Notes under the pieces: model-generated
Told to the model about the DNA's origin: nothing
The model's input: only the letters and a program-made list of their open reading frames with translations
The model's database searches: none
Shown: positions 5,214-54,547 of the stretch, piece by piece
How positions within the stretch are numbered: position 1 is the first letter of the stretch
Layout of the letters: each line of letters opens with the position of its first letter
Translations under genes and position numbers: made by a program
From: Candidatus Omnitrophota bacterium
GTDB lineage: Bacteria > Omnitrophota > Gorgyraeia > JAFGHF01
Length of the DNA stretch: 64,000 nucleotides
Direction: 5' to 3'
NCBI GenBank assembly: GCA_042571705.1
Contig: JBHPFV010000003.1
Span: 28,298-92,297 of the forward strand

Positions 5214-5278
5214 AGTTCCCAAATAGGGCAGAGGCTTAAAGGCGTTTAGCTTTCCCCTATTTTCTGTTAACAGGGGAG

Positions 5279-6057
5279 AGGTAAGTCCGAGTAACTCAAG
5301 GGGCATCGAGTAAGTTCTAGTAAAATTGAGGGCCTCGAGTAAGAAGTGGTAAAATTGGACCATGCGAGTAAGTTGAGGTAAAATAAAGCCTATCGAGTAA
5401 GTTCTAGTAAAATCAAACCCAACGAGTAACTTCCAGTAAAACCGAACCACACGATTAACTCTAAGTAAAATCAAGGCCATTGAGTAAGAACCGGTAAGCT
5501 CAAGACATCGAGTAACTATGAGTAAAATTGGACCCAATGATTAACTGTAAGTAAGTTCGGGACCCTTGAGTAATTCCCGGTAAAATCGAAGGGTACGGTT
5601 AACTGTAAGTAAGTTGGCCCGAAAAAGTAAGACCGGGTAAATTAGCCAGTGGCGAGTAATAGTAAGTAACTTGGGCCCAAAAAGTAAGCGCAGGTAAGGG
5701 CTCAGAATTTGGTAAATCTAAGTAAGTTGGCGCAAAAAAGTAAACCCAGGTAACTTCTCTTCAAAAAGTAAGCCCAAGTAAATGCGCCCGATTTAGTAAA
5801 TCTGAGTAAGTTAGTTCAAAAAAGTAAGCGCAGGTAAGAGCCCCGAATTTAGTAAATCTGAGTAAGTTGGCCCGAAAAAGTAACTCCAAGTAACAGCCAT
5901 GAAAAAAGTAATTCTGAGTAACTTCTCCCAAAAAAGTAAACCTAAGTAAGAGCTCTGAAAACGGTAAGACTGAGTAAGAGGTCTGAAAAAAGTAAGACCA
6001 GGTAAGAGGCTTTAAAAAAGTAAACCCCGGTAAATTGGCCCCAAAAAGTAAGCGCAT
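5279..6057 (+). repeat. phased GTAA tandem array, about 27 units of 29 bp then 28 bp, non-coding
   Basis: GTAA begins at 5281, 5291, 5310, 5320, 5339, 5349 ... (alternating +10/+19), switching near 5600 to +10/+18 through 6048. About 55 in-phase GTAA plus 3 TTAA variants by hand count. TAA therefore closes all three + frames. Confidence 0.95.
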
Positions 6058-6295
6058 AAAAGGCCAGTTAAATGGGCTTTTTTTAGTAAATAAAATTAAC
6101 TACATCAAAGTCAGGTTTTTAAAGTAATCAGAGTTAATTTGGATTAAGTGGCGGTTGCGGAGTAAGCAAAAATGAACAAAAGTAAGTGACAATTTCCGAG
6201 TAAGTTTAGGTAAGTTCAAAGAAGTGAGAATTTCGCAGTAAGATGGAGTAATATCAGTTAAGCCTGAGCGCAGTAATAGTTGGGTTCAGGTAGAC
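6058..6295 (+). repeat. degenerate tail of the GTAA array
   Basis: Further aGTAAg/aGTAAt copies at irregular spacing (about 6086, 6123, 6161, 6181, 6200, 6210, 6238, 6248, 6272). A weak hairpin plus T7 at 6058-6084 separates this tail from the regular array. Confidence 0.7.
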
Positions 6296-7300: not shown

Positions 7301-8281
7301 ATGAAGTTCCCTTTCAGGTGCGTTTTTGTTCTTATTTGTGCATTAATTTTATTTGCGAGCCAGGGAAAGCTGCTGCTTGCTGATAATATTGGAGATTTGG
7401 AGTATACGATTGAGCTAGAAGGATCTGCAGGTAAAGAAACGATCGCTATTCTGCCCTGCAGCGAGGGTGAGCATACATTCATTGCAATACACGGAGCAAC
7501 CACTACTAATCATCTCATGAGATGGGAAAATTTATGGTCTAAAGGCGAGGTTATATTAGCCGGACTTCCAGGGCACGGAGAAGTTCCTCAGTATGGGCGT
7601 TCACACTATTTACAGTGGACTCCCCAACATTTCATTGATGTTGGCGTGGCAACGGTGAAAAAATATAGTCAGGGGCGAGCAGTCACGTTGATTGGCCATT
7701 CTTTTGGAGGTGGCGTAGCTTTGGGGGTTGCCCTTGAAGCCCCTGAGCTTGTTGAGAGATTGATTGTGGTTGATCCAGTTGTCTGGCCTAAGTTAGGCGG
7801 GCTGGATGCTGTAGTAATGTTTATGTGTTCAGCTCCACCGGTGGGTCGTCTTTTGATTAATTCTATTGTATGGTATACAAAAAGATCGTTATCTGAATAC
7901 AGCAAGGGATTTGAAGCTTTTGTTAGTAAAAGTAACGTAAAAACATTTTGCGCAAGCCCTAAAGTCAAGAAAGTCTTAGCACGAAGTTACACCCCTTATG
8001 TTAAGACTCCAGGGTATACATTTTCCGAAATTTATATGGTAATGAAGAAGTTTGATTTACGTTCTCAGCTTAAGGACAATCCTTTCCGGATCCCCACCTT
8101 GATTATACATGGAGATCAGGACCCGAGCGTACCGTTGATGCAAGCAGAGTGGCTAGCTAAGGCGCTTCCCGATGCAGATCTTGTCGTTCTTCCTGATACG
8201 GGGCATTTGGGTTTCCTGGAAAACGAAGAGTTTTTTAATGAACAGGTGGAAAATTGGCTTGATGCCCATCCGGTTAATTAG
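7301..8281 (+). CDS. alpha/beta-fold hydrolase with signal peptide
   Basis: Nucleophile elbow GHSFGG (GxSxG), late Asp (HGDQD) and His (DTGHLGF), and a hydrophobic N-terminal signal sequence. Confidence 0.8.
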   Translation: MKFPFRCVFVLICALILFASQGKLLLADNIGDLEYTIELEGSAGKETIAILPCSEGEHTFIAIHGATTTNHLMRWENLWSKGEVILAGLPGHGEVPQYGRSHYLQWTPQHFIDVGVATVKKYSQGRAVTLIGHSFGGGVALGVALEAPELVERLIVVDPVVWPKLGGLDAVVMFMCSAPPVGRLLINSIVWYTKRSLSEYSKGFEAFVSKSNVKTFCASPKVKKVLARSYTPYVKTPGYTFSEIYMVMKKFDLRSQLKDNPFRIPTLIIHGDQDPSVPLMQAEWLAKALPDADLVVLPDTGHLGFLENEEFFNEQVENWLDAHPVN

Positions 8282-9357
8282 AAATATGACCTCAGCTCAC
8301 CACGCCTTCGGATATCACAGGTAGCACAATGAAAACTGCCGCCAAAAGAGTAGTTACTGCGGAAAGGTAGCGGTATTGGCTGAAAACCCCAGTTTTTTAG
8401 TGCTTGAATCAACGGCCCTTCTTCTTTTTCTACAATCAGTCGCTTTTCATCAAGATTCAACATATTCATATGCAACCATTGGTTCCAAAGGTATCCAGTC
8501 CGTTGGCTTTTAGGATAAGTAGTCTCGGGGCATTCCAGTATTTCCCATTTTGCTTTTTTAAATATCTTTGGTAACTTTTTGATCGGACGCGCCGGATTAA
8601 CTAAAAGCTTGCCGGGTGCTAGTGGTAAAAACGTAGCATCAATATGCAGGGCCCGCGGATCATCAAACTCAAGTTTATGTACGGTGTATTCACTGCCTAA
8701 AGTTCTTCGCAGCCATTCGATGCCAAAATCATTCGTCACCTGGCTGCGTTGTACAAAAATATCCCTGCCGCATCGTACAGCATCAGCAACATCAATGATC
8801 GGTTCAAATTCGTTGGTGATGTAGCGCTGGTTTCCCATCTTCCACTTAGGGTCATAAAGCTGCTCAATAAGCATCGGCTTAGGACCAACACTCCAACGCG
8901 CCCCCTTTTTAAAATATTCTTTAACCAGAGAACGATAGGCAAAGTTCTCAAAATATCGGCACTTCCATGACATTGTTGATTCTATAATGTGGTCACCGAC
9001 AACCATTAATACATCCCGGGGGTCTTTCTGGTTGTACCCCGACTTTGCTGCCCAATACGGAGTGGCGTAAGGTTTGCTGTTATCGATAGCATCTGGACGA
9101 CGTACGATTACCCCTTCTGATTCCAACACATGAATAAAATTATCAAGATCTTTTTGGGCCTGCTCCACTGCCTGTTTTTGAACCGCTGTCCCACCGAATA
9201 TATTTCTGTAGCCCTGAGTTACTTTTAGAATTTCTGGAGGGGTCAAGGCCTCAAAGGGCTTTTCCCACGACATTACACACGCTCCGTCTATGTTACCGAC
9301 GATAATTTCTTCAAGCGGATCCCACTCATTATGAGAATTTGCTACCTTAGCTTTCAT
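8278..9357 (-). CDS. L-arginine:glycine amidinotransferase (AGAT)-type amidinotransferase
   Basis: Near-colinear with AGAT by eye: SHNEWDPLEEIIVG, EGVIVRRPD, TNEFEPIIDVADAVRCGRDIFVQRSQVTN, HIDATF, and C-terminal GGSFHCATCDIRRRG, which contains the catalytic Cys. Confidence 0.88.
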   Translation of the reverse strand: MKAKVANSHNEWDPLEEIIVGNIDGACVMSWEKPFEALTPPEILKVTQGYRNIFGGTAVQKQAVEQAQKDLDNFIHVLESEGVIVRRPDAIDNSKPYATPYWAAKSGYNQKDPRDVLMVVGDHIIESTMSWKCRYFENFAYRSLVKEYFKKGARWSVGPKPMLIEQLYDPKWKMGNQRYITNEFEPIIDVADAVRCGRDIFVQRSQVTNDFGIEWLRRTLGSEYTVHKLEFDDPRALHIDATFLPLAPGKLLVNPARPIKKLPKIFKKAKWEILECPETTYPKSQRTGYLWNQWLHMNMLNLDEKRLIVEKEEGPLIQALKNWGFQPIPLPFRSNYSFGGSFHCATCDIRRRGELRSYF

Positions 9358-9369
9358 AATTTACCTCGA

Positions 9370-10452
9370 TTAGTATTTAAAAAAATTCTCGAAGTCGCTC
9401 TCAATATATTGTTGTAAAAATTTACTCATCTTTTCCCTTCCCTGAGCATTAAGGTGGTCATAATCTATATAATCATTATCCTTGTCGAATGAAGGAAGCT
9501 CATCTAGGGAAACATAGACAAGATCAAGTTGGTTTGCTTGCTCAAGAAGAAAATCATTATATAAAGTATTGAGCTTATTGTCATATAAGCTATTAATCTC
9601 TTGATTCATTGGAGAATCGACAACAATCACTTTTATATTGTTTCTCTGAAAATATAAAACAAGCTCAACAAACAACTCTTTGCATAAAGGAGTAAGTTTG
9701 CTTTGCTCGAAACTTCTTTTATTTTCACTGCGGAAACGTTTTTCCGTTTTTTCATAAAAATCCGGGGAGCAGCCTGTTGTGAAATAGTACTCTTGAAAAT
9801 CTGGCTTTTTTCCAGTCAAGGCAGCATTTACCATCTTTTCTAAAATGCCTGTCAAAACAAATCTGTGTCTTCGGGGAAAAACGACTTTGTTAACAATGCC
9901 ATCTAAGAATACAGCCCTTTCCCGGAAGACTTCTTTGACGCCAAGGTGCTTTATTAAATATGGCACTATATCCGGATCAAATATAAGATCCCAAGTTACC
10001 GTATAGGGAAAAAAGCGTCCTAGAGAAAAAAGACCATGTTCAGAAATGTAGAATCCCCCCACGTCGGGCATCAAAATTACAACATCAGGTTTTTCTTTTA
10101 CAATTCTATCCTTAAGGAGGAAAAGCTGCACGGGGTTGCCGAACGGGATATCAATTGTATAAAACCTCACCCCCTTAGCAAGGAATTCGGTATTCAAATA
10201 CTTGGTATCATACCCTTGAGCAACAGTGCTACCGCCTAGAATGATCACTCGCTTATCTGCACTCTTTTTATCCGGCATAAAATACAATTTTGCCTCAAGG
10301 CGAAACATTCGTCCCATTATTGGCTCCGAATATTTATAAAAGGTTTGCCAAAAAGCCGGCAGTTTTGCTAAAGTGCCTTGAGTGAGAAAGAAAATCATTA
10401 TCGCGGCAACAAATGACCAAGGAAAATGTTTTTTATAATTAAAATTCGCCAT
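9370..10452 (-). CDS. membrane-anchored SGNH/DltD-like protein (probable MBOAT partner)
   Basis: N-terminal TM helix. GGST block (ILGGSTVAQG) and C-terminal DYDHLN (DxxH) resemble SGNH blocks I and V. Overlaps the MBOAT gene by 14 bp. Confidence 0.5.
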   Translation of the reverse strand: MANFNYKKHFPWSFVAAIMIFFLTQGTLAKLPAFWQTFYKYSEPIMGRMFRLEAKLYFMPDKKSADKRVIILGGSTVAQGYDTKYLNTEFLAKGVRFYTIDIPFGNPVQLFLLKDRIVKEKPDVVILMPDVGGFYISEHGLFSLGRFFPYTVTWDLIFDPDIVPYLIKHLGVKEVFRERAVFLDGIVNKVVFPRRHRFVLTGILEKMVNAALTGKKPDFQEYYFTTGCSPDFYEKTEKRFRSENKRSFEQSKLTPLCKELFVELVLYFQRNNIKVIVVDSPMNQEINSLYDNKLNTLYNDFLLEQANQLDLVYVSLDELPSFDKDNDYIDYDHLNAQGREKMSKFLQQYIESDFENFFKY

Positions 10453-11899
10453 AAATAAAGGCTCCTGGCCCGGAGAACCCCCAATAAAGGACTATCAGCC
10501 AGATCAAAAGCACATAAAAGACTGTTTTAATCCAAAAGTTCCATTTAAGCACCACAAAGTGATCATTCTTAATGAACTGGAAAAACTCAATCACAATAAG
10601 TATCCATGTATGGAATATGAATATAACCAAAAAAGTAGCTGATCCCGATGTTAAGGTAAAGTTAAAAAATAGGTTCCGAATAACATTTACAGCTTGGCCT
10701 ACTGATTTGTACGTTGATGTAGACATATATAAAAGCTCTCCAAATACAAAAGAATGAAACGTAATAAACATACCCAAAGCTCCTAGCCATTTATTTTTCT
10801 TCTTAAGCCGGTCAGGTAAAAAATTACCTGATAATTTCCCCAAGGCATTAGCTACAGTAAGTAATATGCCATGATATAACCCCCAAATGAGAAATGCCCA
10901 AGATGCTTCATGCCATACTCCCATTGTTATCATAGTAATGATAATAGCCAGTGAAGTCCCGCCTATTCCTATTAGCCCTAGTCTCAAACGGGCTCGATTT
11001 AGATAGTAAAAAATATAATCGCGGCACCAGCTGGACAAACTTATATGCCACCGGCGCCAAATATCAAATGGGTTTTTAGCAAAAAATGGAAGATTGAAGT
11101 TTAACATCGTCCTAAATCCTAAGCAGCCAGCAATCCCAATTGCCATGTCCGTATATCCGGAAAAGTCGGCATAGAGTCGAAAGGTACCCGCGTATGCGCC
11201 GATAAGGACATCAAAACCAGAAACCACGCCTTGCTCTTTAAAAATATTGTTTACTATCTGGGCCAGGCCATCAGCAACAAATACCTTCTTGAACAGCCCC
11301 CAAAAAAACAAATAACAACTTTCAGAAAAGAATTTTACATTAAATTCTCTTGGGGCCGCTACCTGTGGTAAAAAATTGGCCGCACGTTCAATAGGGCCGG
11401 ACAATATTTGGGGAAAAAAAGAAATATAAAGAGCATAATCCAGAAAGCTAGTTGCCGGTTGTTTAATTACCTTTCTGTAAATATCAATATTGTAACTCAG
11501 TGATTTGAAAATGTAATATGAAATGCCTAAAGGAAGAATTATATCTAGCCAAAATGATGAAATATCCCCCACTCTCATAATATCTGATATAAGTCGATTG
11601 AAATTATCAATAAAGAAATTATAGTATTTGAAAAAAAAGAGCACCACAGCATGGATTGCTATGCTACTCCAGAGAATACTGTTCTTATGCTTCTGCTCAG
11701 CCCGATAGATACCTATTGCGCAAATATAACCTATGCCTGTCACAAAGAGCATCAAAAAGAGAAAACGCCAATCCCAGCAGGCATAAAAAAAATAGCTACC
11801 CAGAAGTAAAAGTAAATTTTGTTTTTTACGATCTAGGCGCCAGTAAATGATAAATAAAAGCAGAAAAAAGAAAAGAAAATCGTATGACAAAAAGTCCAT
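10439..11899 (-). CDS. MBOAT-family membrane O-acyltransferase (DltB/AlgI-like)
   Basis: 486 aa, polytopic. Contains the conserved WRRWHISLSSWCRDYIFY segment with the catalytic His. Confidence 0.9.
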   Translation of the reverse strand: MDFLSYDFLFFFLLLFIIYWRLDRKKQNLLLLLGSYFFYACWDWRFLFLMLFVTGIGYICAIGIYRAEQKHKNSILWSSIAIHAVVLFFFKYYNFFIDNFNRLISDIMRVGDISSFWLDIILPLGISYYIFKSLSYNIDIYRKVIKQPATSFLDYALYISFFPQILSGPIERAANFLPQVAAPREFNVKFFSESCYLFFWGLFKKVFVADGLAQIVNNIFKEQGVVSGFDVLIGAYAGTFRLYADFSGYTDMAIGIAGCLGFRTMLNFNLPFFAKNPFDIWRRWHISLSSWCRDYIFYYLNRARLRLGLIGIGGTSLAIIITMITMGVWHEASWAFLIWGLYHGILLTVANALGKLSGNFLPDRLKKKNKWLGALGMFITFHSFVFGELLYMSTSTYKSVGQAVNVIRNLFFNFTLTSGSATFLVIFIFHTWILIVIEFFQFIKNDHFVVLKWNFWIKTVFYVLLIWLIVLYWGFSGPGAFIYGEF

Positions 11900-11920
11900 T
11901 CCAGCGCCCTGTTTTCCTCG

Positions 11921-12196
11921 TTAATTTGATTCCTGTTCTTCGCTGTCTTTAATTTCTTTGACGATCGCCGCCATCCCTTGAATCGAACGGGACCGGCTAT
12001 CAAAAAAATGCTCTTCTTCCAGCTTTACCTCAAACGACTGCTCAAGAAAAGTTGCCAAATCGAATACACCCATCGAGTCAATAATCCCTGCTTCAAATAG
12101 ATTAATGTTATTATTTAGCTCGTTTTCACCAACCCGGTAGTGCTCACTTACATATTTTTTGATTAGCTGTATAATTTCCGCTTCGCTTAAAGACAT
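11921..12196 (-). CDS. acyl/peptidyl carrier protein (DltC-like)
   Basis: 91 aa, acidic. Phosphopantetheine attachment motif GIIDSMG. Confidence 0.8.
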   Translation of the reverse strand: MSLSEAEIIQLIKKYVSEHYRVGENELNNNINLFEAGIIDSMGVFDLATFLEQSFEVKLEEEHFFDSRSRSIQGMAAIVKEIKDSEEQESN

Positions 12197-12214
12197 TCAT
12201 CGCCTCCGGATATA

Positions 12215-13486
12215 TCAGTAAAACATTTCTGGTTTAAATGACCTTCGCGCTATCTTAACCTCCCCGCCATCAATAAGTAACTCAGCTGGTAAATCGTGAG
12301 AGAGAAATAAAAGCGGACTCCCTGTATAAACATATGCACCCGAATTCAAAATGGCAATGTAATCGCCGATTTGGGGTTCTACTAATTCCACTGCCAGGCC
12401 CAAAAGATCAAAGGCCGCGCATAATGGGCCGACCACTGCAACTTCCATCTTTTTGCTCTCATCTGTATTAGAAAGATTCACCATTTTAAAATTCTCACGC
12501 ATAAGTTGACCAAACTTACCGCTGGCCGCAAGGTGATGGTTCATGCCGCCATCTAACACACAGAAGTGTTTTCCTCTGGATTCCTTTATATCCACCACCC
12601 GGGCAATATAAATGCCCGCTTGAGCAACTATAAATCGTCCTAATTCGATTATCCCGGTACAATCAAAAAGGCCTGTCTCTTGCCTAAATTGATTAAATTG
12701 CTCTACTAAAGATGCGCAGACATATTTAACATCAATCTCCTTCTGACTTCTAAAATAAGGAATCCCAAATCCACCCCCCAAGTTAACTTTTTTTAAAGGA
12801 ATGCCTGTAGCTTTAAAAACCAACCGGGCCAACTGCAAAATATTTTGCGCATTTTCAATAATTATTTCTTCGCTTAAACATTGCGTACCCGAGAACACAT
12901 GGATTCCTATGAAATTACAGCGTTGCGTTGACTGAAGCAGCCCAAAAAAATCCTGGCATTTCTCCTGATCAATACCTAATTGAGAAGCCTTTCCCCCCAT
13001 TTTAATCGGGAACTTCCTGTTGACCTTCGCAGGGTTGATGCGCATAGAGACATCGGCCGTTTTTCCCAATTCCTTTGCGATTCTCTCTATCCGCTTAAGT
13101 TCATTCAATGACTCTACGCTGATTGAGCCAACGTTTTTGGAAATAGCAAGGGAAAGCTCTTCATCCGTTTTGCCCGGGCCGGCAAAGCTTATCTGGCTAG
13201 GATTCGATCCAGTTCTTAAGACCTCCCTAAGTTCGCCACCTGAAGAAATATCCATCCCATCAACCAATGGCATTATGCCTTTAAGAAGTTCGAGATTGGG
13301 ATTTGCTTTTACACAATAGTAAAGATCAATCGCATCTTTCAGGCTACCCTTGACAATGCTGATTTGGTCTTGAACATGCCTCAGGTCATACAAGAAAGCA
13401 GGCGACCCATATTCAGCCCCAATCGAATGTAAATCAATATCTCTCAGAAACAAATGGTTATTGACGGGACGGAGATTTAGATCCAT
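12215..13486 (-). CDS. fold-type III PLP-dependent decarboxylase (DAP/Orn/Arg decarboxylase family)
   Basis: YCVKANPN with the PLP lysine, the GGGFGIPY motif, and about 420 aa, typical of LysA/SpeC-like enzymes. Confidence 0.85.
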   Translation of the reverse strand: MDLNLRPVNNHLFLRDIDLHSIGAEYGSPAFLYDLRHVQDQISIVKGSLKDAIDLYYCVKANPNLELLKGIMPLVDGMDISSGGELREVLRTGSNPSQISFAGPGKTDEELSLAISKNVGSISVESLNELKRIERIAKELGKTADVSMRINPAKVNRKFPIKMGGKASQLGIDQEKCQDFFGLLQSTQRCNFIGIHVFSGTQCLSEEIIIENAQNILQLARLVFKATGIPLKKVNLGGGFGIPYFRSQKEIDVKYVCASLVEQFNQFRQETGLFDCTGIIELGRFIVAQAGIYIARVVDIKESRGKHFCVLDGGMNHHLAASGKFGQLMRENFKMVNLSNTDESKKMEVAVVGPLCAAFDLLGLAVELVEPQIGDYIAILNSGAYVYTGSPLLFLSHDLPAELLIDGGEVKIARRSFKPEMFY

Positions 13487-13517
13487 GATTATATTTCCCT
13501 TCTTAGAAAATACTAGT

Positions 13518-15050
13518 CTAAGATCTCAAGGAGATTTTGTCTATCTTACCTGATGGCGCCTTGGGAAGAGAACTCCTGAGTTCAATTAGCTCAGGAACCA
13601 TAAAACTCGGCATATTTAATCTACAAAACTTATTTATCTCGCCTGCAGTAATATCTGAAGAGCTGGGGACAACAACAACCTTAAGCTTGGACCCAAACAA
13701 ATCATCCTTAACACTAATAGCAGCCGCTTCTTTAACCAGCGAAGAATTTAGCAGTATCTCCTCAACCTCTTGAGGAGATACTCTTTCTCCCCTGCATTTT
13801 ATCATTTCTGTTTTTCTCCCGGTAATATAGATAAAGCCGTCTTGATCTTTCCTTCCTAAATCTCCTGAGTGGAAGCCGGGGTCGCTGAGCGAACTGTCTG
13901 TCTGCCCCCAGTATCCCGGCATTACATTATCTCCGCTTAAGACCAGCTCCCCCTGAGAACCATTTAGAATCTCATCTCCGGTTTCTCCGATGATGCGAAT
14001 ATTGACAATGCTCATGCCTTTGCCACAAGAATCGACCTTCTCCAGAAGACTCTCTGGACTAAACAGGTGAAGGCAGGCTGCTCCGGCGTTTTCAGTTAAT
14101 CCATACCGTATTGCAATAGAGGCGCCAGGAAATTCACTCCTCAATTCATAAATGAGATTTCTAGGAACATGTGAAAGGCCAATCTCTAAATGTCTCAACT
14201 GATTTTGCAGCTTATCGCGAACAGAAGAGATTCTATTCGCCTTAAGCAGAAAATTATAAATAAACGGAGGGCCGATAATACTCGTTACCTCATTGTTGAT
14301 TATGGACTCGAGGAAATCCGCTGGCGAAAGATTCCCTGGTGAGAGGACAACCGTATTTCTATTATAGACGCAATCTATCAAAGTTGATTTTCCACAGGAA
14401 TGGGCAAGGGAAACTGCCAAGAAATATATCTCGCTGGTATCGATATTAAGATATTGAGTGCGGGACTTTGTTGCGGTAATGAAATTCTTATGAGTGAGCA
14501 TTGCGCCTTTAGGAGTACCGGTAGATCCAGAGGTATATTGAATCATGCAAATGTCTTCTTCCTTCAAGCGGAAGGACTGCAAATTCTCAAGATTTGTTGC
14601 GAGTATTTGAGAATAAAGAGATATCTTTATTCTTTTGCTTGTGGAACAATCCAGGAGAGATTCATCGAATAATATAACGTGGTCGAGAGAGTTTACGTTT
14701 CTTAAGATTTCTTCCAGCACCTCTTTTTCCACACCCTGCACGAACAAAATTTTTACAGAACAATTGGTTAAAGAATAAATAATAAACTTAGTCGACATCC
14801 GCGGGCTTAACCCAACTTCAATACAGCCAGCCTTGAGAGTGGCAAAAAATAATACTACATTTTCAATGTAATTATCCATCAGAATCGCAACTCTATCCCC
14901 TTTTTCCATATCCGATTTTACCAAGAACTTCGCTACAATGTCAGAAATTTCATCAAGGGCTTTGTACGTAATGCACTGAGAACCATAGATAACAGCTTTC
15001 TTGTCGGGGGAACGAACCACAGACCCAGTTAATGCTTCTTGGATCAACAT
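13518..15050 (-). CDS. AMP-dependent synthetase/ligase (DltA-like adenylating enzyme)
   Basis: ANL motifs YTSGSTGTPKG, GDLGRKDQDGFIYITGR and C-terminal PKAPSGKIDK. Confidence 0.9.
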   Translation of the reverse strand: MLIQEALTGSVVRSPDKKAVIYGSQCITYKALDEISDIVAKFLVKSDMEKGDRVAILMDNYIENVVLFFATLKAGCIEVGLSPRMSTKFIIYSLTNCSVKILFVQGVEKEVLEEILRNVNSLDHVILFDESLLDCSTSKRIKISLYSQILATNLENLQSFRLKEEDICMIQYTSGSTGTPKGAMLTHKNFITATKSRTQYLNIDTSEIYFLAVSLAHSCGKSTLIDCVYNRNTVVLSPGNLSPADFLESIINNEVTSIIGPPFIYNFLLKANRISSVRDKLQNQLRHLEIGLSHVPRNLIYELRSEFPGASIAIRYGLTENAGAACLHLFSPESLLEKVDSCGKGMSIVNIRIIGETGDEILNGSQGELVLSGDNVMPGYWGQTDSSLSDPGFHSGDLGRKDQDGFIYITGRKTEMIKCRGERVSPQEVEEILLNSSLVKEAAAISVKDDLFGSKLKVVVVPSSSDITAGEINKFCRLNMPSFMVPELIELRSSLPKAPSGKIDKISLRS

Positions 15051-15093: not shown

Positions 15094-16362
15094 TTATTCC
15101 TTAATCGCGGGTAAGGTAATAATGAAGGCAGTACCTTGCCCGGGTTTGCTTTTGACCTCAATTTCGCCATTGTGGGCCTGGATAATCTGGTAGCTTACCG
15201 AGAGGCCCAATCCGGTCCCTTTAAACTGAGCCTTGGTGGTATAGAACGGCTCAAAGACCTTATCCAGGTCTTTCTGGCTAATCCCACAACCGGTATCGCT
15301 GAACTCAATGCTTATTTTATCAGGCTGTTTGGCCTGCTTGGCCTTGAGGTTCTTGGCCGTGATCTTGAGCTTGCCCCCTTTAGGCATGGCTTGTTGGGCG
15401 TTTAAGATGATGTTGGTGAACACCTGCTGGAGCTGATTAGCATGGCCCTTTACCTTTTTTAAGCCCGGAGCGAACTTGCAATCTACCTTGACATTGTGTA
15501 TCTTCAGCTGGTTGCCGATTAAGGAGAATATATCTTCAGTAATATGAGTAAGATCTATAGTCCCTAATGGCGTTTGGGACTTTCTGGAAAAATTGAGCAA
15601 ATTCTCTACTATACACTTACAGCGCTCTGACTCCTTTTCGATGTATTTTAGGTATTTCTTACAGGCCTTGAATTCCTTGGCGCCAAAGTCGGCTTTCTTG
15701 ACTTTCTGGAGCATGAATTGGACATAGCCTGAAATTCCCCCCATAGGATTGTTCAATTCGTGGGCTACGCCGGCCCCTAACTGGCCTACAGCCGACATCT
15801 TGGCCGACTGAATCAATTTAGCCTGCGCATCCTTTAATTGCTGGTTAGAGCGCTCTAATTCTTTAGTCCGCTCACGCACCTTTTGCTCTAATTTCTTGCT
15901 ATACTCCTGGATTTGTTTTTGCTTGTCCTTAAGTTCCTGATTCATCTGCTCAATGATCTTGATGTGCTTGAGCCGGCCTTGCTCTAATCGATAGACCTCA
16001 ATATTTCGCTGTACGCTATGCAAGAATACCTCCATCTCAAAAGGCTTATAGATGTAATCATCGACCCCGACCTTAATCGCCCGGACCGGGACATCCGGAT
16101 CGGCGTAACCGGTCATGATAATCACCATGCTTTTTGTCTCGGGGTAGATTTTCTTGATCCGTTTTACCGTTTCAATGCCATCCATCTTTCCGGGCAAACG
16201 CACATCAGCCAGGGTCAGCTCGAAAAAGTTGTTTTTCGCCGCCTCAATGGCGCCGGCTCCATCTTCTACGCCTGTGGCCCGAAACCCCTCTTCCTGCAAC
16301 AGCTCAATTAGGGCCCGGCGAAAATGCTGGTCATCCTCAATCACTAAAATATGTTCTTTCAT
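15094..16362 (-). CDS. hybrid receiver-histidine kinase (REC, coiled coil, HisKA, HATPase)
   Basis: Receiver domain with LADVRLPGKMDG, a long coiled coil, H-box AHELNNP, and ATPase boxes DTGCGI and GTGLGLS. No TM segments. Confidence 0.9.
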   Translation of the reverse strand: MKEHILVIEDDQHFRRALIELLQEEGFRATGVEDGAGAIEAAKNNFFELTLADVRLPGKMDGIETVKRIKKIYPETKSMVIIMTGYADPDVPVRAIKVGVDDYIYKPFEMEVFLHSVQRNIEVYRLEQGRLKHIKIIEQMNQELKDKQKQIQEYSKKLEQKVRERTKELERSNQQLKDAQAKLIQSAKMSAVGQLGAGVAHELNNPMGGISGYVQFMLQKVKKADFGAKEFKACKKYLKYIEKESERCKCIVENLLNFSRKSQTPLGTIDLTHITEDIFSLIGNQLKIHNVKVDCKFAPGLKKVKGHANQLQQVFTNIILNAQQAMPKGGKLKITAKNLKAKQAKQPDKISIEFSDTGCGISQKDLDKVFEPFYTTKAQFKGTGLGLSVSYQIIQAHNGEIEVKSKPGQGTAFIITLPAIKE

Positions 16363-16415: not shown

Positions 16416-18755
16416 TTACTTTTTCACCGGTATCTTAATAGTCACGGTAGTCCCTTGTTGTGGCTTAGAGGAGACTTCAATGCTTCCCTTGTGGTTTTCA
16501 ATAATCCTATATACGATAGAAAGCCCCAGGCCGGTGCCTTGACCGATATCTTTGGTAGTAAAGAATGGGTCAAATATCTTATCAAGTTGATTTTTTGATA
16601 TCCCGACACCATCGTCCTTGACTTGCACGACCACAAAGTTTCCTTCTTGATAACTTTCGATGGTAATCGCGCCAGCTTCTCTAACTGATTTGATGGCTTC
16701 TTTGGCATTGACGATTAAATTGGTAAACACTTGCATTAATTCGTTAAAATTGCCCTCAATGGCCGCGATTGTTCCTTGCTGTTTGATCAGATAAAACTCA
16801 ATTTTTTCTTTAGTCAACTGATGCTCCAAAAAAGAGCAACAGCGGTCGATGACCTGATTTATTTGGATCGGTTCAAACTTGCTGCTGGTTTTCCTTGAGT
16901 ATTGCAACAGCATTTCTACAATTTCTTTGCAGCGCTGGGTACCTTCTTCGATTTGCTTGAGCATTCTTTTGTATGGTTTGGCCTGCAATTTTCTGAGCAA
17001 CATTTCTGTATTAAGTAATATCGCGCCCAGCGGTGTGTTGATTTCATGAGCCACGCCGCCGGCCAAGATACCTACCGTGGCCATTTTTTCGGACTGTATC
17101 AGCTGGGCTTCGGTAGTTTTTAATTTTTTCTGCACCCCGGAATGCATGCGGGCGTTGACTAAAGCTATGGAGGCATATTCAGCCAATGCTTCCACTAAGC
17201 TCAAGTCATCAGCGGTAAAGGCATTAACCAGAGATTGCCTGTCGATATAGATTAAGCCGACAATCCCTTTATTTTCTCTTTTTAAAGGCACGCAAATTAC
17301 TGAGCGAATATCCAGGTCTAAAACGCTTTTTGCAGTTGAAAATTGGCTGTCACCCTGAACATCAGTAAGCAAAATTGCTTCTTGGGTCTCCATGACCTTC
17401 TTGGTGATCGTCCGGCTAAAATTCTTGAAGAAAGTATGCTGTTTTTTGGTAATTTTTTCCTTAGTTCTAATTACCTGGGAATAAAGCTTTCCGGCCTCAT
17501 CCAGCAAAATCAAAAATCCACGATCAGCTTCAGTTACTTTCATGATGTATTCAATGACGTTATTTAAGACAGCCTCTAAGTCCAAATTACTGACCACCAG
17601 TTTCATGAATTCTTCCAGCGTTCCTTGCTGCTGTGTTTGTACAGAAGATGGTTGTTGAGCAGACCCTGGTGGCGCTGGCGCTTCTTTTTGCCTGTCTTTT
17701 AAGTCTTGGCGGGCTTGATTGGCAAGAGAGAGCTGAAATTGATTATCAATGATAATAAATTTAGCCGAGGCCTCTTCTAGGGCCTTGGTGCTTTGAGAAT
17801 AGTCTTTTAGCTCTGCGTATAATTCACCTAGCTTCAGTTGAGTTATCCCCTCTTCTAAAGGATTCTCCGTGGACTGGGCTATTTTAATAGCTTGCTTAAA
17901 ATATTCTTCTGCTTGTTTGAATTGTTTTTCTTTTTGAGTGATTTGACCCCAAAGCCTGAACAAATAAATATGATAATAAGAATCCGATACTTCTAACTCT
18001 GTTTCTAGCTTTTGCTGGGCCTGTTCCAAATATTCCCTGGCTTCAGCTATTTTTCCTTGCTTTAAAAGCACCTCAGCCGTATGATAAAGGGCAGGAATTA
18101 ACTGCTCTGCTTGCTTGTCTTGTCCCAAAGAAACAGCCTGCTTAAGATTGGTCAAGGCTTCCCCTTCCCTATTCAATTCCAAAGCGATCTTTCCCATCAG
18201 CACCTGGGCTTGGATTTGGAGGTTAAACTTTCCTAATTTCTTGGCCAGATCCAACAGCTTATTTGCCGTTTCCTGGGCGGAGTTAAAATCTCCCCGGTTT
18301 AAGGCCTCCCAGGCCAAAACCGGCAGCACATAGATTTCATAGGTTGATGGTTCTGGTAACCTCTGCAGACAACTAAACACCGAGTTACGCAGTCCTTGGA
18401 CCTGGTGTTTGCGGCCGCAAAACCCTAAGTAATCGAGTTTACATTTATTGACCCAGAAGGTTATATCTGCAAGATTATTTTGCTGAGCTATTTTATCAGC
18501 TTTTTCTAAATATTGGTCTAGGCCTTTTCTGCCGAAGCGAGAGAAGGTCTGCTCGCAGAGACAGCAAGCCATGGCGTAAACCCACCAGTATTGCTGATCT
18601 TGTCCTGTTTTTCTCTGTTCACAACGCCCAATCAGCTCTTTCATTTGGCTAGCGCAGGTAACAGCTAACCCGTGGTCTAATAAATCAGAGGCTTTGCTTA
18701 TTGAATCTTTGCTGTAGGCGAAAAACTTCCTATTTGAACTCCAAAATAACCGCAT
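16416..18755 (-). CDS. cytoplasmic TPR-GAF histidine kinase
   Basis: The N-terminal ~350 aa are TPR-like helical repeats, followed by a Q/P-rich linker, a GAF-like region, H-box AHEINTPL, and DDGVGI and GTGLGLS boxes. Confidence 0.85.
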   Translation of the reverse strand: MRLFWSSNRKFFAYSKDSISKASDLLDHGLAVTCASQMKELIGRCEQRKTGQDQQYWWVYAMACCLCEQTFSRFGRKGLDQYLEKADKIAQQNNLADITFWVNKCKLDYLGFCGRKHQVQGLRNSVFSCLQRLPEPSTYEIYVLPVLAWEALNRGDFNSAQETANKLLDLAKKLGKFNLQIQAQVLMGKIALELNREGEALTNLKQAVSLGQDKQAEQLIPALYHTAEVLLKQGKIAEAREYLEQAQQKLETELEVSDSYYHIYLFRLWGQITQKEKQFKQAEEYFKQAIKIAQSTENPLEEGITQLKLGELYAELKDYSQSTKALEEASAKFIIIDNQFQLSLANQARQDLKDRQKEAPAPPGSAQQPSSVQTQQQGTLEEFMKLVVSNLDLEAVLNNVIEYIMKVTEADRGFLILLDEAGKLYSQVIRTKEKITKKQHTFFKNFSRTITKKVMETQEAILLTDVQGDSQFSTAKSVLDLDIRSVICVPLKRENKGIVGLIYIDRQSLVNAFTADDLSLVEALAEYASIALVNARMHSGVQKKLKTTEAQLIQSEKMATVGILAGGVAHEINTPLGAILLNTEMLLRKLQAKPYKRMLKQIEEGTQRCKEIVEMLLQYSRKTSSKFEPIQINQVIDRCCSFLEHQLTKEKIEFYLIKQQGTIAAIEGNFNELMQVFTNLIVNAKEAIKSVREAGAITIESYQEGNFVVVQVKDDGVGISKNQLDKIFDPFFTTKDIGQGTGLGLSIVYRIIENHKGSIEVSSKPQQGTTVTIKIPVKK

Positions 18756-19185: not shown

Positions 19186-19563
19186 TTACATCCAATGGTT
19201 CCAATCTAGCCTAGCAATACTTTCCTTCACGAATTTTCTGATCGTCAACCGATCTTTTTGCTTCAACTTGACAAAGGCCACGCCGCATCGATAAGTGGGA
19301 TATCCGCCCCAGTAATTATTCAGCACGAACGTGATCCGACCTTGAACATTAATGCTAACATAAGGAGAGGGCAATACTATTGTTAGCTGCAAAATACTTC
19401 CGGGAGGCAGTTTCTTTGAGGTCTTGAGCATTATTCCGCCTTCGCAGATATTTACGCTGACCGCTTTTGTTGGTGAAGAAGCAGAGCCTTTAACCCTATA
19501 TTTGACACCAAAATCCGTTCTGACTCTAGAGAATTTTCTCTGTTCTTGAGCCATTTGAACCAC
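19186..19563 (-). CDS. PilZ domain protein (Cys variant of the binding motif)
   Basis: RKFSR, and NICEGG (Ser replaced by Cys). Its 5' end overlaps the larC stop by 29-38 bp, depending on the start codon chosen. Confidence 0.75.
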   Translation of the reverse strand: MVQMAQEQRKFSRVRTDFGVKYRVKGSASSPTKAVSVNICEGGIMLKTSKKLPPGSILQLTIVLPSPYVSINVQGRITFVLNNYWGGYPTYRCGVAFVKLKQKDRLTIRKFVKESIARLDWNHWM

Positions 19564-20737
19564 TCTCCTTCAATTTTTTTGAGCAGAGCATTTTTGCCTG
19601 ATCATACACAGCCTGCAAAGGCACCTTCTTTTTTTTAGCAATTCTTTTACAGGATTCATATTCCGGGGCAATAGTTTTTATCCGCTGGCCAATTTTGCCT
19701 ATTTTTACCTCAACCTTCCCGAAATCAGTCCCTATTGATACAACCTTGCGCAAAAGTTTTCTTCTTGTAAGATACTGTATCCTGACCCCAAATGTTGAAG
19801 TCTCGTCAAATATAACAGAGAGCAGTTCATCAAGTTTTTGTGGTTCGCTCAGGACGCTGAGCATGCTGGCAGCCCGGCCCTTTTTCATAATTATAGGGGT
19901 CATAAAGACATCAAGCGCGCCCTGGGAAAACAACTTTTCGCATGTATATTCCAGCACTTCGGGACTGAGGTCATCTATGTTTGTTTCCACCAGCGCTATT
20001 TCGTCTCGATCAGGCTGGTGTTCAATTAATTTCCCGAGGGAAATCCGTAAGAAATTAGGAATATTAAGTTCTTTCTCTCCTGCCCCGTAGCCTATTTTAG
20101 CTATTTTCATCTGCGGCAGGGAGCCAAAGCCCTGAGCAACAGCTTTAACTATAGAGGCGCCTGTGGGCGTAACCAGCTCTGTTTCTATGCCTTGGGAATA
20201 GACAGGTATTCCTTTCAATAACTCAAGTGTTGCCGGTGCCGGAACAGGTAATGTCCCGTGCCCGCATTTAAGAAAACCGCTTCCCATATGGATTTTTGAT
20301 GAATAGACGCGTTCAATGCCTAATTTCTTTATGGCTATAAAAGCCCCGATAATCTCTACTATTGAATCCAGCGCTCCCAGCTCATGAAAATGTATCTGAT
20401 TGATATCTTTACGATGTATTTGCGACTCTATCCTGGCAAGTTCTGTAAATGTATTTTTGCCCAGCTTCTTGATCTCACTATCCAATCCGCTTTTTTCTAT
20501 TAACTGCAGAATATCTCTTAAGTTTCGCTTGCGCGTTTGCTTGACAGTAGTAATATTAAACTTTGTTCCTGAGATCCCTCCCCTGAGCACCTGCTCTGTT
20601 TCTATTCTGTAACCGGGAAGCTTAAGTTTTTTTAGTTCTGCTTTAAGTTGCTTGAGATCCAGTCCGGCATCAATCAATGCGCCCAGGACCATATCCCCAC
20701 TGATACCGGAGAAGCAATCAAAATAGGCTATCTGCAC
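19526..20737 (-). CDS. larC: LarC, nickel-inserting cyclometallase of nickel-pincer nucleotide (NPN) cofactor synthesis
   Basis: N-terminus MQIAYFDCFSGISGDMVLGALIDAG. About 400 aa, with the typical two-domain length. Confidence 0.88.
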   Translation of the reverse strand: MQIAYFDCFSGISGDMVLGALIDAGLDLKQLKAELKKLKLPGYRIETEQVLRGGISGTKFNITTVKQTRKRNLRDILQLIEKSGLDSEIKKLGKNTFTELARIESQIHRKDINQIHFHELGALDSIVEIIGAFIAIKKLGIERVYSSKIHMGSGFLKCGHGTLPVPAPATLELLKGIPVYSQGIETELVTPTGASIVKAVAQGFGSLPQMKIAKIGYGAGEKELNIPNFLRISLGKLIEHQPDRDEIALVETNIDDLSPEVLEYTCEKLFSQGALDVFMTPIIMKKGRAASMLSVLSEPQKLDELLSVIFDETSTFGVRIQYLTRRKLLRKVVSIGTDFGKVEVKIGKIGQRIKTIAPEYESCKRIAKKKKVPLQAVYDQAKMLCSKKLKESGSNGSRTEKIL

Positions 20738-21492
20738 GTTTGTTTACCCATTCTATTGATCATGCTTGCAAAATACCCCGCACCAAACCCATTATCTATA
20801 TTTACTACTGTAACTCCGGGAGCGCAGCAGTTAAGCATAGACAATAGCGCCGCCAAACCATCAAAACTTGCTCCATAGCCAATACTAGTGGGAACAGCAA
20901 TTACCGGCTTATCTACCAGACCCCCGACTATACTAGCTAGGGCTCCTTCCATGCCGGCAACAACTATAATTACATTGGCCTTAACCAGGTTGGGCAAATA
21001 TTTAAATAATCTATGTATGCCGGCGACGCCGATATCATATGTTCGCTCCACAGAGTTTCCCAGAAGTTCGGCCGTTACCGCCGCTTCTTCGGCAACCGGA
21101 ATATCGGCAGTTCCGGCGCTGATGATCAATATACGTTTTTTGGAATTTTTTTGTTTACTCCGGCCGACAGCTACTATCTTGGCAGTTTCGTAATAAACCG
21201 CGTTCTTTTTTATTTTTTTGATAGCCTGGTAAATTTGTTTACTGGCCTTGGTGGCTATGGCCCAGCCAGTAGTCGCTAAAAGCCTCTTTGCTATCTTTGT
21301 GATTTGGTCGATCGTCTTACCCTTACAGAATATAACCTCCGGAACACCACAGCGTAACTCGCGATGCGTATCCAGTTTAGCAAATCCCAGGTCTTCAAAC
21401 GGCAGAGTTCGCAAAACATTCATCGCTTTGGAAACATCCAGCTTGCCGTTGCGTACACCATTAAGAAGTGCGTTTATCTTTTTGCTATTCAA
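20728..21492 (-). CDS. larB: LarB, NaAD carboxylase/hydrolase (AIR-carboxylase-like)
   Basis: ISAGTADIPVAEEAAVTAELLG and the PurE-like C-terminal half. 254 aa. Confidence 0.88.
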   Translation of the reverse strand: MNSKKINALLNGVRNGKLDVSKAMNVLRTLPFEDLGFAKLDTHRELRCGVPEVIFCKGKTIDQITKIAKRLLATTGWAIATKASKQIYQAIKKIKKNAVYYETAKIVAVGRSKQKNSKKRILIISAGTADIPVAEEAAVTAELLGNSVERTYDIGVAGIHRLFKYLPNLVKANVIIVVAGMEGALASIVGGLVDKPVIAVPTSIGYGASFDGLAALLSMLNCCAPGVTVVNIDNGFGAGYFASMINRMGKQTCR

Positions 21493-21501
21493 ATTCCATT
21501 C

Positions 21502-22329
21502 CTACCTTGAGCTTTTTAGCGTTTCGTTCATACTGCCCATCCTGTAACCTTCCAGGTCTACGGTTATGTACGCATAACCTAGTTTTTTAAGTTCGGCTAC
21601 AGCCTTCTCAGATATGCCTGAGCCGAAAAACAGGGGTATTTCTTCTTTGGGGACCTCTATTCTGGCAATAGCACCGTGTACCCTTACGCGCAGTTGACTA
21701 AAACCCAAAGTTGAGAGCAGCTCCTCGGCCTGATCCACTCGGATGAGCTCTGGAGAGGTGATTCTGTTGCCATATGGAAATCTGGATGATAAACACGGAA
21801 AAGCAGGTTTGTCCCAGGAAGGAAGATTAAGCTCTTTTGACAATATCCGGATCTCCTGTTTCGTAAATCCGGCTTCCTTTAAAGGGCTTCTCACGCTCAG
21901 TTCAGCCGCGGCTTTTGCGCCCGGGCGAAAATCTTTTGTATCATCGTAGTTTGAACCATCGGCAACATACTTTATTCCGTACTTCTTGGCCAGTTCGTTA
22001 AGCTTGGCAAACAACTCGCTTTTGCAGTAATAGCACCTTTGTGGAGAGTTCGCGGCAAAATCTTCGTTATTCAATTCACTTGTATTAATGATAATGTGTT
22101 TGACGCCTATAATTCCGGCATATTCTTTAGCTGCTTTGACTTCACGAGCGGGATATGTCTCTGACTGCGCGGTAACTGCCAGCACATTGTCCAGTAAAAC
22201 ATCCTTGGCCACTTTAACTAATAAAGTGCTGTCTACGCCTCCTGAATAAGCAACTAAAACACTTTCCATGCTCAATAAAATATTTTTTAAAACTGCTAAC
22301 TTTTCCAAGAGCTTATCCCTGCTTAACAA
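21502..22329 (-). CDS. larE: LarE, ATP-dependent sacrificial sulfur transferase
   Basis: PP-loop YSGGVDS and the LarE cysteine motif PCLSSRFPYG. 275 aa. Confidence 0.88.
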   Translation of the reverse strand: MLSRDKLLEKLAVLKNILLSMESVLVAYSGGVDSTLLVKVAKDVLLDNVLAVTAQSETYPAREVKAAKEYAGIIGVKHIIINTSELNNEDFAANSPQRCYYCKSELFAKLNELAKKYGIKYVADGSNYDDTKDFRPGAKAAAELSVRSPLKEAGFTKQEIRILSKELNLPSWDKPAFPCLSSRFPYGNRITSPELIRVDQAEELLSTLGFSQLRVRVHGAIARIEVPKEEIPLFFGSGISEKAVAELKKLGYAYITVDLEGYRMGSMNETLKSSR

Positions 22330-23056: not shown

Positions 23057-23059
23057 TTA

Positions 23060-25351: not shown

Positions 25352-25355
25352 ATAA

Positions 25356-53446: not shown

Positions 53447-53475
53447 TCCACATTCCTATAGAATCATAAATTTGC

Positions 53476-54534: not shown

Positions 54535-54547
54535 CTTTTCTTCCTTT

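Follow-up and report, generated by a model that had tools for sequence, protein, structure and literature searches.

Cationic esterification of surface polymers, by D-alanylation, lysylation or aminoarabinose, sets the charge of the envelope and affects both resistance to cationic peptides and adhesion. In Firmicutes, teichoic acids are D-alanylated by DltABCD, a system made up of an adenylating ligase, a small carrier, a membrane-bound O-acyltransferase (MBOAT) and an SGNH-type protein. The AlgI/AlgJ/AlgX and PatA/PatB systems combine an MBOAT with an SGNH protein that follows it directly and carries a Ser/Asp/His set, and these O-acetylation pairs use acetyl donors. Here we describe a six-gene operon that has features of both arrangements, found in a 64,000-nt stretch of DNA (hereafter the window) from a metagenome-assembled genome (MAG) of a Candidatus Omnitrophota bacterium (NCBI GenBank GCA_042571705.1, 98-kb contig JBHPFV010000003.1:28,298-92,297). 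The operon encodes an adenylating ligase, a pyridoxal phosphate (PLP)-dependent decarboxylase, an acyl carrier protein (ACP), an MBOAT, an SGNH-type protein and an amidinotransferase.

Synthesis of short amino acids on a carrier has been described for the BtrI/J/K (butirosin), CtaD/E/F (closthioamide) and FlvN/L/O (fluvirucin) trios. In these systems BtrJ, CtaD or FlvN activates the amino acid (Glu or Asp), which is tethered through its side-chain carboxyl to BtrI, CtaE or FlvL, and the type III PLP decarboxylases BtrK, CtaF and FlvO then strip the alpha-carboxyl on the carrier to give 4-aminobutyrate (GABA) or beta-alanine (PMC11350588). CtaF was unable to decarboxylate free substrates (PMC7183216), and BtrK falls with diaminopimelate (DAP) decarboxylase in one clade unrelated to polyamine synthesis (PMC7857480). 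Like these trios, the window operon has a stand-alone carrier and an ATP-dependent loader alongside a BtrK-like decarboxylase. The BtrJ and CtaD loaders are ATP-grasp enzymes, whereas the window loader is of the ANL type, like FlvN, and while the known trios feed aminoglycoside, polyketide or polythioamide assembly, the window product is predicted to be exported by the MBOAT and SGNH proteins.

We tentatively propose, at somewhat less than even confidence, that all six genes form a carrier-dependent, Dlt-like pathway that would place a cationic omega-amino or omega-guanidino acyl group on an extracytoplasmic acceptor, most likely a polysaccharide. We give considerably more weight to a core pathway whose end product is an omega-aminoacyl ester than to the complete six-gene model. 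Functional statements made here are inferences from homology and synteny. No relevant literature was found on the gene combination, on the function of the related exosortase A (XrtA)-associated gene pair or on aminoacylation of exopolysaccharide (EPS) by an MBOAT and an ACP; NCBIfam carries the two models of that pair, TIGR03098 and TIGR03099, as hypothetical equivalogs.

The six genes, in the order ligase to amidinotransferase, are as follows:

13518-15050, minus strand: ANL ligase, 510 aa
12215-13486, minus strand: fold-type III PLP decarboxylase, 423 aa
11921-12196, minus strand: ACP (carrier protein), 91 aa
10439-11899, minus strand: MBOAT, 486 aa
9370-10452, minus strand: SGNH-type protein, 360 aa
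8278-9357, minus strand: AGAT-family amidinotransferase, 359 aa

The genes form a tight operon, with successive spacings of 31, 18, 21, -14 (an overlap of the MBOAT and SGNH genes) and 12 bp, and each starts with an ATG that has a purine-rich, Shine-Dalgarno-like stretch 5' of it. The preliminary description of this DNA had named six co-directional genes with these spacings and assigned them to these six families; the coordinates of the open reading frames (ORFs) agree with the former, and profile, PDB and alignment matches with the latter. A promoter and terminator scan was uninformative on the operon limits (36 against 31.1 ± 4.6 and 20 against 14.2 ± 4.0, respectively, in shuffled sequence). 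An OEP/TolC-type gene in the window implies that the host has a diderm envelope, and LptF/G occurs in one of the related loci described below (L006, from another Omnitrophota MAG).

A five-gene core around a BtrK-type decarboxylase

The decarboxylase matched Pfam Orn_Arg_deC_N and Orn_DAP_Arg_deC, and its closest solved relative was BtrK, the L-glutamyl-[BtrI ACP] decarboxylase (7ru7, 2.2e-77, 264 bits; also 2j66), against at most 181 bits for DAP decarboxylases in the PDB. The BtrK comparison made in the preliminary description was therefore upheld. The alignment spans residues 5-416 of the window protein and pairs its GGMNHHLAAS with GGMHHHAAST of BtrK; the motifs K60 in VKAN, GGGFG at 237, ELGR at 281 and GPLC at 353 were present. 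Among NCBIfam models the top match was TIGR03099 (425.1 bits, cutoff 478.45), the name also given by the Prokaryotic Genome Annotation Pipeline (PGAP), and lysA scored 271 (cutoff 297.9). Decarboxylases 51-59% identical to it occur in L001, L004, L006, L007 and L009 of the loci that we compared. From this homology, the window enzyme is predicted to act on a carrier-tethered amino acid.

The stand-alone carrier matched Pfam PP-binding (7.5e-6), and its best PDB matches were the type II carriers PigG and PltL, followed by DltC. Its scores against two DltC models (27.4, cutoff 68; 23.1, cutoff 52.35) were below both cutoffs. The phosphopantetheine site is predicted to be Ser41 in the DSMG motif, and the protein is 48-56% identical to the ACPs of L006 and L007.

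The ligase matched Pfam AMP-binding (1.7e-68) and AMP-binding_C and carries the motifs SGSTGTPKG at 174, YGLTE at 316, GRKTEMIKCRG at 411 and PSGK at 499. Its top NCBIfam model was TIGR03098 (324.4 bits, cutoff 592.35), with a generic fatty-acid-CoA ligase model nearly level at 320 bits; DltA was absent from the best 25 of its 107 NCBIfam matches, which comprised TIGR03098 and acyl-CoA ligase models. While the window decarboxylase and MBOAT are as near to those of L006 and L007 as these two loci are to each other, the window ligase is only 25-31% identical to the other ligases of the ligase, ACP and decarboxylase trio, which are 34-58% identical among themselves (58% between L006 and L007). 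The gene order also differs: the window runs ligase, decarboxylase, ACP, and L006 and L007 run ligase, ACP, decarboxylase. The ligase usual for the trio has probably been replaced in the window by a non-orthologous one, which leaves the substrate uncertain. Another relative, L004, encodes after its decarboxylase a 499-aa protein (9919-11418) with no Pfam match and an SSGSSGRP motif, which we take to resemble adenylating enzymes of the PaaK/F390-synthetase type; this protein may be an alternative loader in that relative.

The trio together with an MBOAT and an SGNH protein makes up a five-gene core that was found in five lineages, the window included, and recurs in other phyla, with differing gene orders and identities of 31-57%. 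Apart from the window, the core occurs in the following:

L006, another Omnitrophota MAG: ligase, ACP, decarboxylase, MBOAT, 496-aa protein
L007/L008/L011, a 'Patescibacteria group' MAG: ligase, ACP, decarboxylase, MBOAT, 886-aa protein with a GDS motif and TPR repeats
L014, an uncultured bacterium: ACP, ligase, decarboxylase, hexapeptide transferase, Wzx-like flippase, Acyl_transf_3, MBOAT, AlgX-like SGNH protein; also a glycosyltransferase
L065, a Chromatiaceae MAG: divergent ACP, overlapping ligase, decarboxylase, GDSL/SGNH protein, MBOAT; a sulfotransferase after them and UDP-glucose dehydrogenase upstream

The decarboxylases of L006 and L007 are 55% identical to that of the window.

A genome scan with the decarboxylase alignment gave 80 loci, in most of which a ligase gene adjoins the decarboxylase gene; ACP-like ORFs lay nearby in 36 of the first 90 loci. 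The proteobacterial loci were classical XrtA/PEP-CTERM EPS loci, with hydr1_PEP, hydr2_PEP, PEP-CTERM export genes, a chain-length determinant, a tyrosine autokinase and a PEP-CTERM-box regulator, whereas no XrtA, PEP-CTERM or hydr1/hydr2 family was present among the scanned proteins of the 64-kb window. TIGR03098 and TIGR03099 had been named in the preliminary description as a possible home for these genes, and the kinship holds: the two models are the best NCBIfam matches of the ligase and the decarboxylase, whose genes are adjacent (31 bp). Membership in the XrtA-associated pair was rejected, since both scores fall short of their cutoffs (324.4 of 592.35 and 425.1 of 478.45) and the window has no exosortase A context; it differs further by the MBOAT/SGNH genes, by the amidinotransferase and by its 25-31% identical ligase. 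Together, these sequence comparisons indicate that the five-gene core represents one version of a trio that is widespread, associated with EPS and as yet uncharacterised.

The cargo of this trio may vary by lineage. Between the ligase and the BtrK-like decarboxylase genes of L009 and L010 stands a gene of glutamate-mutase type (Met_asp_mut_E; 7828-9765 in L009, where it also matches B12-binding weakly, and 3250-5127 in L010), an arrangement that resembles the 3-methylaspartate route to vicenistatin (VinH/I, VinN, VinL, VinO) and, by that analogy, hints at such variation.

The MBOAT and SGNH proteins

The MBOAT matched its Pfam family at 1.6e-19, had several hydrophobic segments and aligned with the DltB structures 6bug and 8jem at about 4e-30, with WRRWH(285)ISLS set against the WNRWHMSLS His motif of DltB. 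Its sole NCBIfam match was DltB (TIGR04091), at 182.6 bits against a cutoff of 375. By these comparisons it is a relative of DltB and not a member of that family. It is 51-55% identical to the MBOATs of L006 and L007, with which it forms a tighter group (51-57% identical mutually), and 31.5% and 33.4% identical to those of L014 and L065.

A metagenome scan with the MBOAT alignment returned at least 80 loci, and the statements that follow apply among the matches listed. Generic MBOATs 34-45% identical to that of the window were paired with the same SGNH family, and a hidden Markov model (HMM) of that family matched the ORF directly 3' of the MBOAT in about 30 of the 80 loci. None of the 80 had a ligase, ACP, decarboxylase or amidinotransferase, which sets the window operon apart from MBOAT and SGNH O-acetylation pairs, in which ligase, carrier and decarboxylase are lacking.

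The 360-aa protein encoded after the MBOAT had no direct match in Pfam, NCBIfam or the PDB, and a word-indexed search of 5.8 billion proteins found only the protein itself; its protein database entry lists PF27429.1. An exhaustive HMMER search of 1.84 billion cluster representatives recovered 116 clusters of an SGNH family, all at most 34% identical to it. In a 44-member alignment, G73, S75, P281 and G338 were invariant and D330 and H333 nearly so, and this pattern of a GxS block I and a DxxH block V places the protein in the SGNH superfamily. Pfam matches among the 44 members were to DUF1574 (9), Lipase_GDSL_2 (6) and ALGX (2), with no DltD family among them. The family HMM also matched the protein after the MBOAT of L006, and the profile run against PDB sequences gave marginal GDSL and acetyl-xylan-esterase matches (0.003-0.1) and one spurious designed protein. 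From its sequence family and gene position, we conclude that this protein is the SGNH partner of the MBOAT, with a position and predicted role like those of DltD, AlgJ and AlgX.

At its N-terminus, both the sequence FPWSFVAAIMIFFLTQGTLA and a low-confidence, single-sequence AlphaFold2 model (pLDDT 38.9, pTM 0.28) point to a helix at residues ~10-28, placed at 10-25 by the model, and the segment is below a strict hydropathy cutoff. This helix is probably a membrane anchor. The label "membrane-anchored SGNH/DltD-like" in the preliminary description can accordingly be kept for the SGNH fold, is probable for the anchor, and does not extend to membership in a DltD family.

The Dlt-like logic that had been read from the gene order holds at the level of homology, with a DltB-homologous MBOAT, an adjacent type II carrier and an SGNH protein after them; the ACP shares the serine motif, in the form DSMG, and a weak match to DltC. 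Membership in the Dlt system itself was rejected (DltB 182.6 against 375, DltC 27.4 against 68, no DltD family match). No window component reached a Dlt equivalog cutoff, and the SGNH protein is DUF1574/AlgX-like rather than of the DltD families. The window also differs from DltABCD by its added PLP decarboxylase and amidinotransferase, by a predicted cargo other than D-alanine and by its diderm host.

The amidinotransferase and the competing readings

The amidinotransferase had no Pfam match at 1e-3 and no hydrophobic segment, and it matched solved structures over its full length: SxtG (6u1r, 8.6e-107), HsvA (3.7e-94), AGAT (~1e-92) and StrB1 (3e-59). The catalytic set is complete when mapped to AGAT, with D115 (D170), D189 (D254), H238 (H303), D240 (D305) and C344 (C407), and the motifs on which the preliminary description had based its AGAT-likeness were found at residues 10 (NEWDPLEE), 238 (HIDATF) and 339 (GGSFHCATCDIRRRG). 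R257 corresponds to AGAT R322, which is lost in SxtG and HsvA, while the AGAT specificity positions N300 and M302, to which two specificity residues of CyrA correspond, are occupied by R235 and L237, so that the glycine-acceptor residues are not kept. R235 is present in 116 and R257 in 119 of 120 homologues. The protein belongs to an uncharacterised clade of 3146 proteins (E < 1e-30) with an R-A-[ILV]-H-I-D signature. It shares the Cys-His-Asp set with AGAT, CyrA, SxtG, HsvA and StrB1 and, like CyrA, adjoins carrier-protein machinery; it differs from the family in its specificity loop (R235/L237) and in the carrier-tethered acceptor proposed here, for which we know of no precedent. By homology, it is predicted to be cytoplasmic and to turn the omega-amine of the cargo into a guanidine, using L-arginine.

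The complete pathway that we propose would run as follows. The ANL ligase would adenylate Glu or Asp at the side-chain carboxyl and thioesterify it to holo-ACP, although the substrate at this step is uncertain. From its homology and conserved synteny, the BtrK-like decarboxylase would then strip the alpha-carboxyl on the carrier to give 4-aminobutyryl- or beta-alanyl-S-ACP. The amidinotransferase, with L-arginine as donor, would convert this to 4-guanidinobutyryl- or 3-guanidinopropionyl-S-ACP, which is the least secure step; amidination would have to follow decarboxylation, whether on the carrier or through release and reloading, because the PLP decarboxylase needs a free alpha-amino acid end. 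At the cytoplasmic face the MBOAT would accept the acyl group from the carrier, and would then move it across the membrane, as DltB does with D-alanyl-DltC, and the SGNH protein, probably membrane-anchored, would deliver it to acceptor hydroxyls. A glycan is the most likely acceptor, because polysaccharide genes adjoin the core in L014 and L065 and the trio in a further locus, L171. Guanidinoacetate, the first cargo candidate of the preliminary description, was rejected as unlikely, since it would leave the BtrK-type decarboxylase without a role; the guanidino-acid idea fits better with 4-guanidinobutyrate, which had been its second candidate, or with 3-guanidinopropionate. As a whole, that interpretation is partly supported.

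Participation of the amidinotransferase in the pathway is supported by its position 12 bp after the SGNH gene and by the decarboxylase, trio and ACP genes found near its relatives in L001-L004, L171 and L172. In L001-L003, a 75%-identical amidinotransferase is one small gene away from a 59%-identical decarboxylase, the small gene of L002 (2136-2465) and L003 (1980-2309) being a small multidrug resistance (SMR) transporter, and in L004 6.6 kb separate a copy of the same 75% class from a decarboxylase of 56% identity. The EPS locus of L171, with Poly_export, Bac_transf, UDP-glucose dehydrogenase, GT2 and hexapeptide transferase genes, includes a 61% relative; ~1.8 kb away from it are genes for an AMP-ligase, a decarboxylase with 35% identity to that of the window and a 73-aa PP-binding protein. 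The gene immediately after a 59% relative in L172 encodes an 83-aa ACP that belongs to the same family as the window carrier (HMM 2.6e-17; GIIDSQG against GIIDSMG). Other members of the clade stand in nonribosomal peptide or polyketide synthase (NRPS/PKS) contexts (L005, L173, L174), next to a Bradyrhizobium sugE gene (L175) and within a gene cluster of Streptomyces (L176). Exact-sequence context look-ups for the window amidinotransferase and SGNH protein found no record. Overall, the clade usually occurs with carrier-protein chemistry, and its link to the trio is recurrent but not universal.

Several observations weigh against the complete six-gene model. No amidinotransferase gene occurs in the other core loci (L006, L007/L011, L014 and L065) or in any of the 80 genome loci where ligase and decarboxylase are paired. 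Co-conservation with the Dlt-like core, on which the preliminary description had staked its reading, was found in all five lineages for the decarboxylase and not for the amidinotransferase, which is an add-on to the core. Its clade is large and the contexts are varied. L001-L004 share further genes with the window (a Ser/Thr kinase, 45-56%; an M20 peptidase, 64%; a ~180-aa gene, 59%) and appear to be close relatives with rearranged gene order, so the proximity of amidinotransferase and decarboxylase there is not independent evidence. CyrA acts on a free acceptor before loading, and we know of no amidinotransferase that acts on a carrier-bound amine. The MBOAT is nearer in sequence to the generic, carrier-less, SGNH-paired MBOATs among the matches listed than to DltB, and because those nearer MBOATs lack carrier genes, use of an ACP donor by the window MBOAT is read solely from synteny. 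The weakest point of the core model is the substrate of the ligase, an enzyme probably non-orthologous to its trio counterparts that matches fatty-acid-CoA ligase models equally well.

Part of this evidence leads to a reading in which the core installs GABA or beta-alanine esters and the amidinotransferase works separately, making a free product such as guanidinoacetate, homoarginine or a guanidino-amine. The absence of the enzyme from the other core and pair loci and its diverse contexts fit this, and the conservation of R235 and R257 suggests that the acceptor is free and bears a carboxylate, as that of AGAT does. The transporter genes beside its relatives would likewise suit a free product of small size. 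In L175 (Bradyrhizobium pCB82_1, 9103-9417), a lineage unrelated to L002 and L003, an SMR gene with the annotation sugE adjoins a clade amidinotransferase, which suggests that a small guanidino compound, exported or toxic, is the product of at least some members of the clade. We nevertheless consider a separate amidinotransferase unlikely for the window, as the gene is on the same strand only 12 bp from the SGNH gene and its relatives recur near a BtrK-type decarboxylase (L001-L004), a full trio (L171) and the same ACP family (L172).

Alternatively, the MBOAT might pass an amino- or guanidino-acyl group to a lipid or a secreted metabolite. The frequent occurrence of amidinotransferase relatives in NRPS/PKS clusters would be in keeping with such a small-molecule or lipid pathway, as would a FeeM-like gene and two ABC exporter genes at 22313-27161 of the window. 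The AlgX/GDSL-type families that the MBOAT and SGNH pair matches are associated with glycan O-acylation, however, the core of L014 and that of L065 lie inside polysaccharide loci, and the operon and the FeeM-like gene have the Lar genes and two kinase genes between them, all of which makes this reading improbable.

A route through free intermediates would have free meso-DAP converted to lysine by a LysA-like action of the decarboxylase and lysine to homoarginine by the amidinotransferase, with the ligase loading homoarginine or another guanidino amino acid for MBOAT/SGNH export. Enzymes of the AGAT family can amidinate lysine, the window enzyme keeps the equivalent of AGAT R322, the lysA score of the decarboxylase (271) is near the cutoff of 297.9, and a non-orthologous ligase fits a changed substrate. 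Set against this, BtrK outscores every DAP decarboxylase (264 bits against at most 181), enzymes of the CtaF type do not use free substrates, and the decarboxylase is tied to ligase and ACP in dozens of genomes that have no amidinotransferase, where a supply of lysine would be redundant; we regard this route as quite improbable.

Chance juxtaposition of an acetyl-CoA-dependent MBOAT/SGNH O-acetylation pair and an unrelated trio is very improbable, for although the pair evidently works carrier-free elsewhere (SGNH family directly after the MBOAT in ~30 of the 80 listed loci, no ligase, ACP or decarboxylase in any), five lineages share the combination, its genes overlapping or closely spaced, and identity among the trio-linked MBOATs of the window, L006 and L007 is 51-57%, compared with 34-45% to the generic ones listed.

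Returning to the carrier-dependent, Dlt-like pathway, a broader proposal can be made from the same comparisons, although we think it somewhat unlikely to hold in full. The trio, including the XrtA-associated pair, might be a general maker of beta-alanyl- or GABA-carrier thioesters that MBOAT/SGNH proteins or other transferases esterify onto exopolysaccharides, as a counterpart of D-alanylation in Gram-negative bacteria and candidate phyla. In the window the thioester would be amidinated on the carrier, by the first amidinotransferase of this kind, to give a guanidinium-decorated surface. Should the Dlt-like reading be correct, the XrtA-associated ligase and decarboxylase pair would gain a concrete, testable function, and the Dlt paradigm would reach into diderms and candidate phyla, there with another cargo that is synthesised on the carrier. 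That reading also predicts a surface polymer bearing guanidinium groups and a way of acting that is new for amidinotransferases.

Genes around the operon

On the same strand and upstream of the ligase gene are two histidine kinase genes, a receiver-histidine kinase hybrid (15094-16362, minus strand) and a TPR-GAF histidine kinase (16416-18755, minus strand), with gaps of 43 and 53 bp; they may be regulators of the operon or be co-transcribed with it. Small PilZ-type proteins are encoded nearby at 19186-19563, 1461-1826 and 2319-2828.

On the other side, an alpha/beta-hydrolase gene (7301-8281, plus strand) is convergent with the amidinotransferase gene, the 3' ends overlapping by 4 bp, and its product has a hydrophobic N-terminus that is probably a signal peptide. 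It could be an esterase that acts on the operon's modification; it is neither hydr1_PEP nor hydr2_PEP, and no conserved link to the operon was found. Beyond it, 3' of a PAS-GAF-HD gene, is a degenerate, non-coding tandem array of ~950 bp (5275-6220) with a period of 28-29 nt (also 56, 84 and 112), an ...AGTAA... motif about every 14 nt and units 58-88% identical. The array had no Rfam match and no tRNA, and it does not resemble a CRISPR, as degeneracy extends over the entire unit and distinct spacers are lacking.

Farther upstream, the nickel-pincer cofactor genes LarC, LarB and LarE (19526-22329, minus strand) all exceeded their NCBIfam cutoffs, and the neighbours examined included no identified LarA-type enzyme. 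The FeeM-like gene of the minus-strand cluster at 22313-27161 encodes an N-acyl amino acid synthase (GNAT) and lies directly 3' of the two exporter genes, which are MsbA/HlyB-like; the three may form an export module for N-acyl amino acid lipids. Many glycosyltransferase genes, a PMT_2 protein and transport genes occupy the window between 27 and 53 kb. A further minus-strand group (51105-58850) encodes a LuxC-like acyl-CoA reductase, a LuxE-like acyl-protein synthetase, a radical SAM protein, a 1252-aa Ser/Thr kinase-AAA-TPR protein and a 183-aa protein. The 1252-aa kinase, the 183-aa protein and an M20 peptidase (45138-46337) have relatives of 45-64% identity encoded beside the amidinotransferase and decarboxylase genes in L001 and L004.

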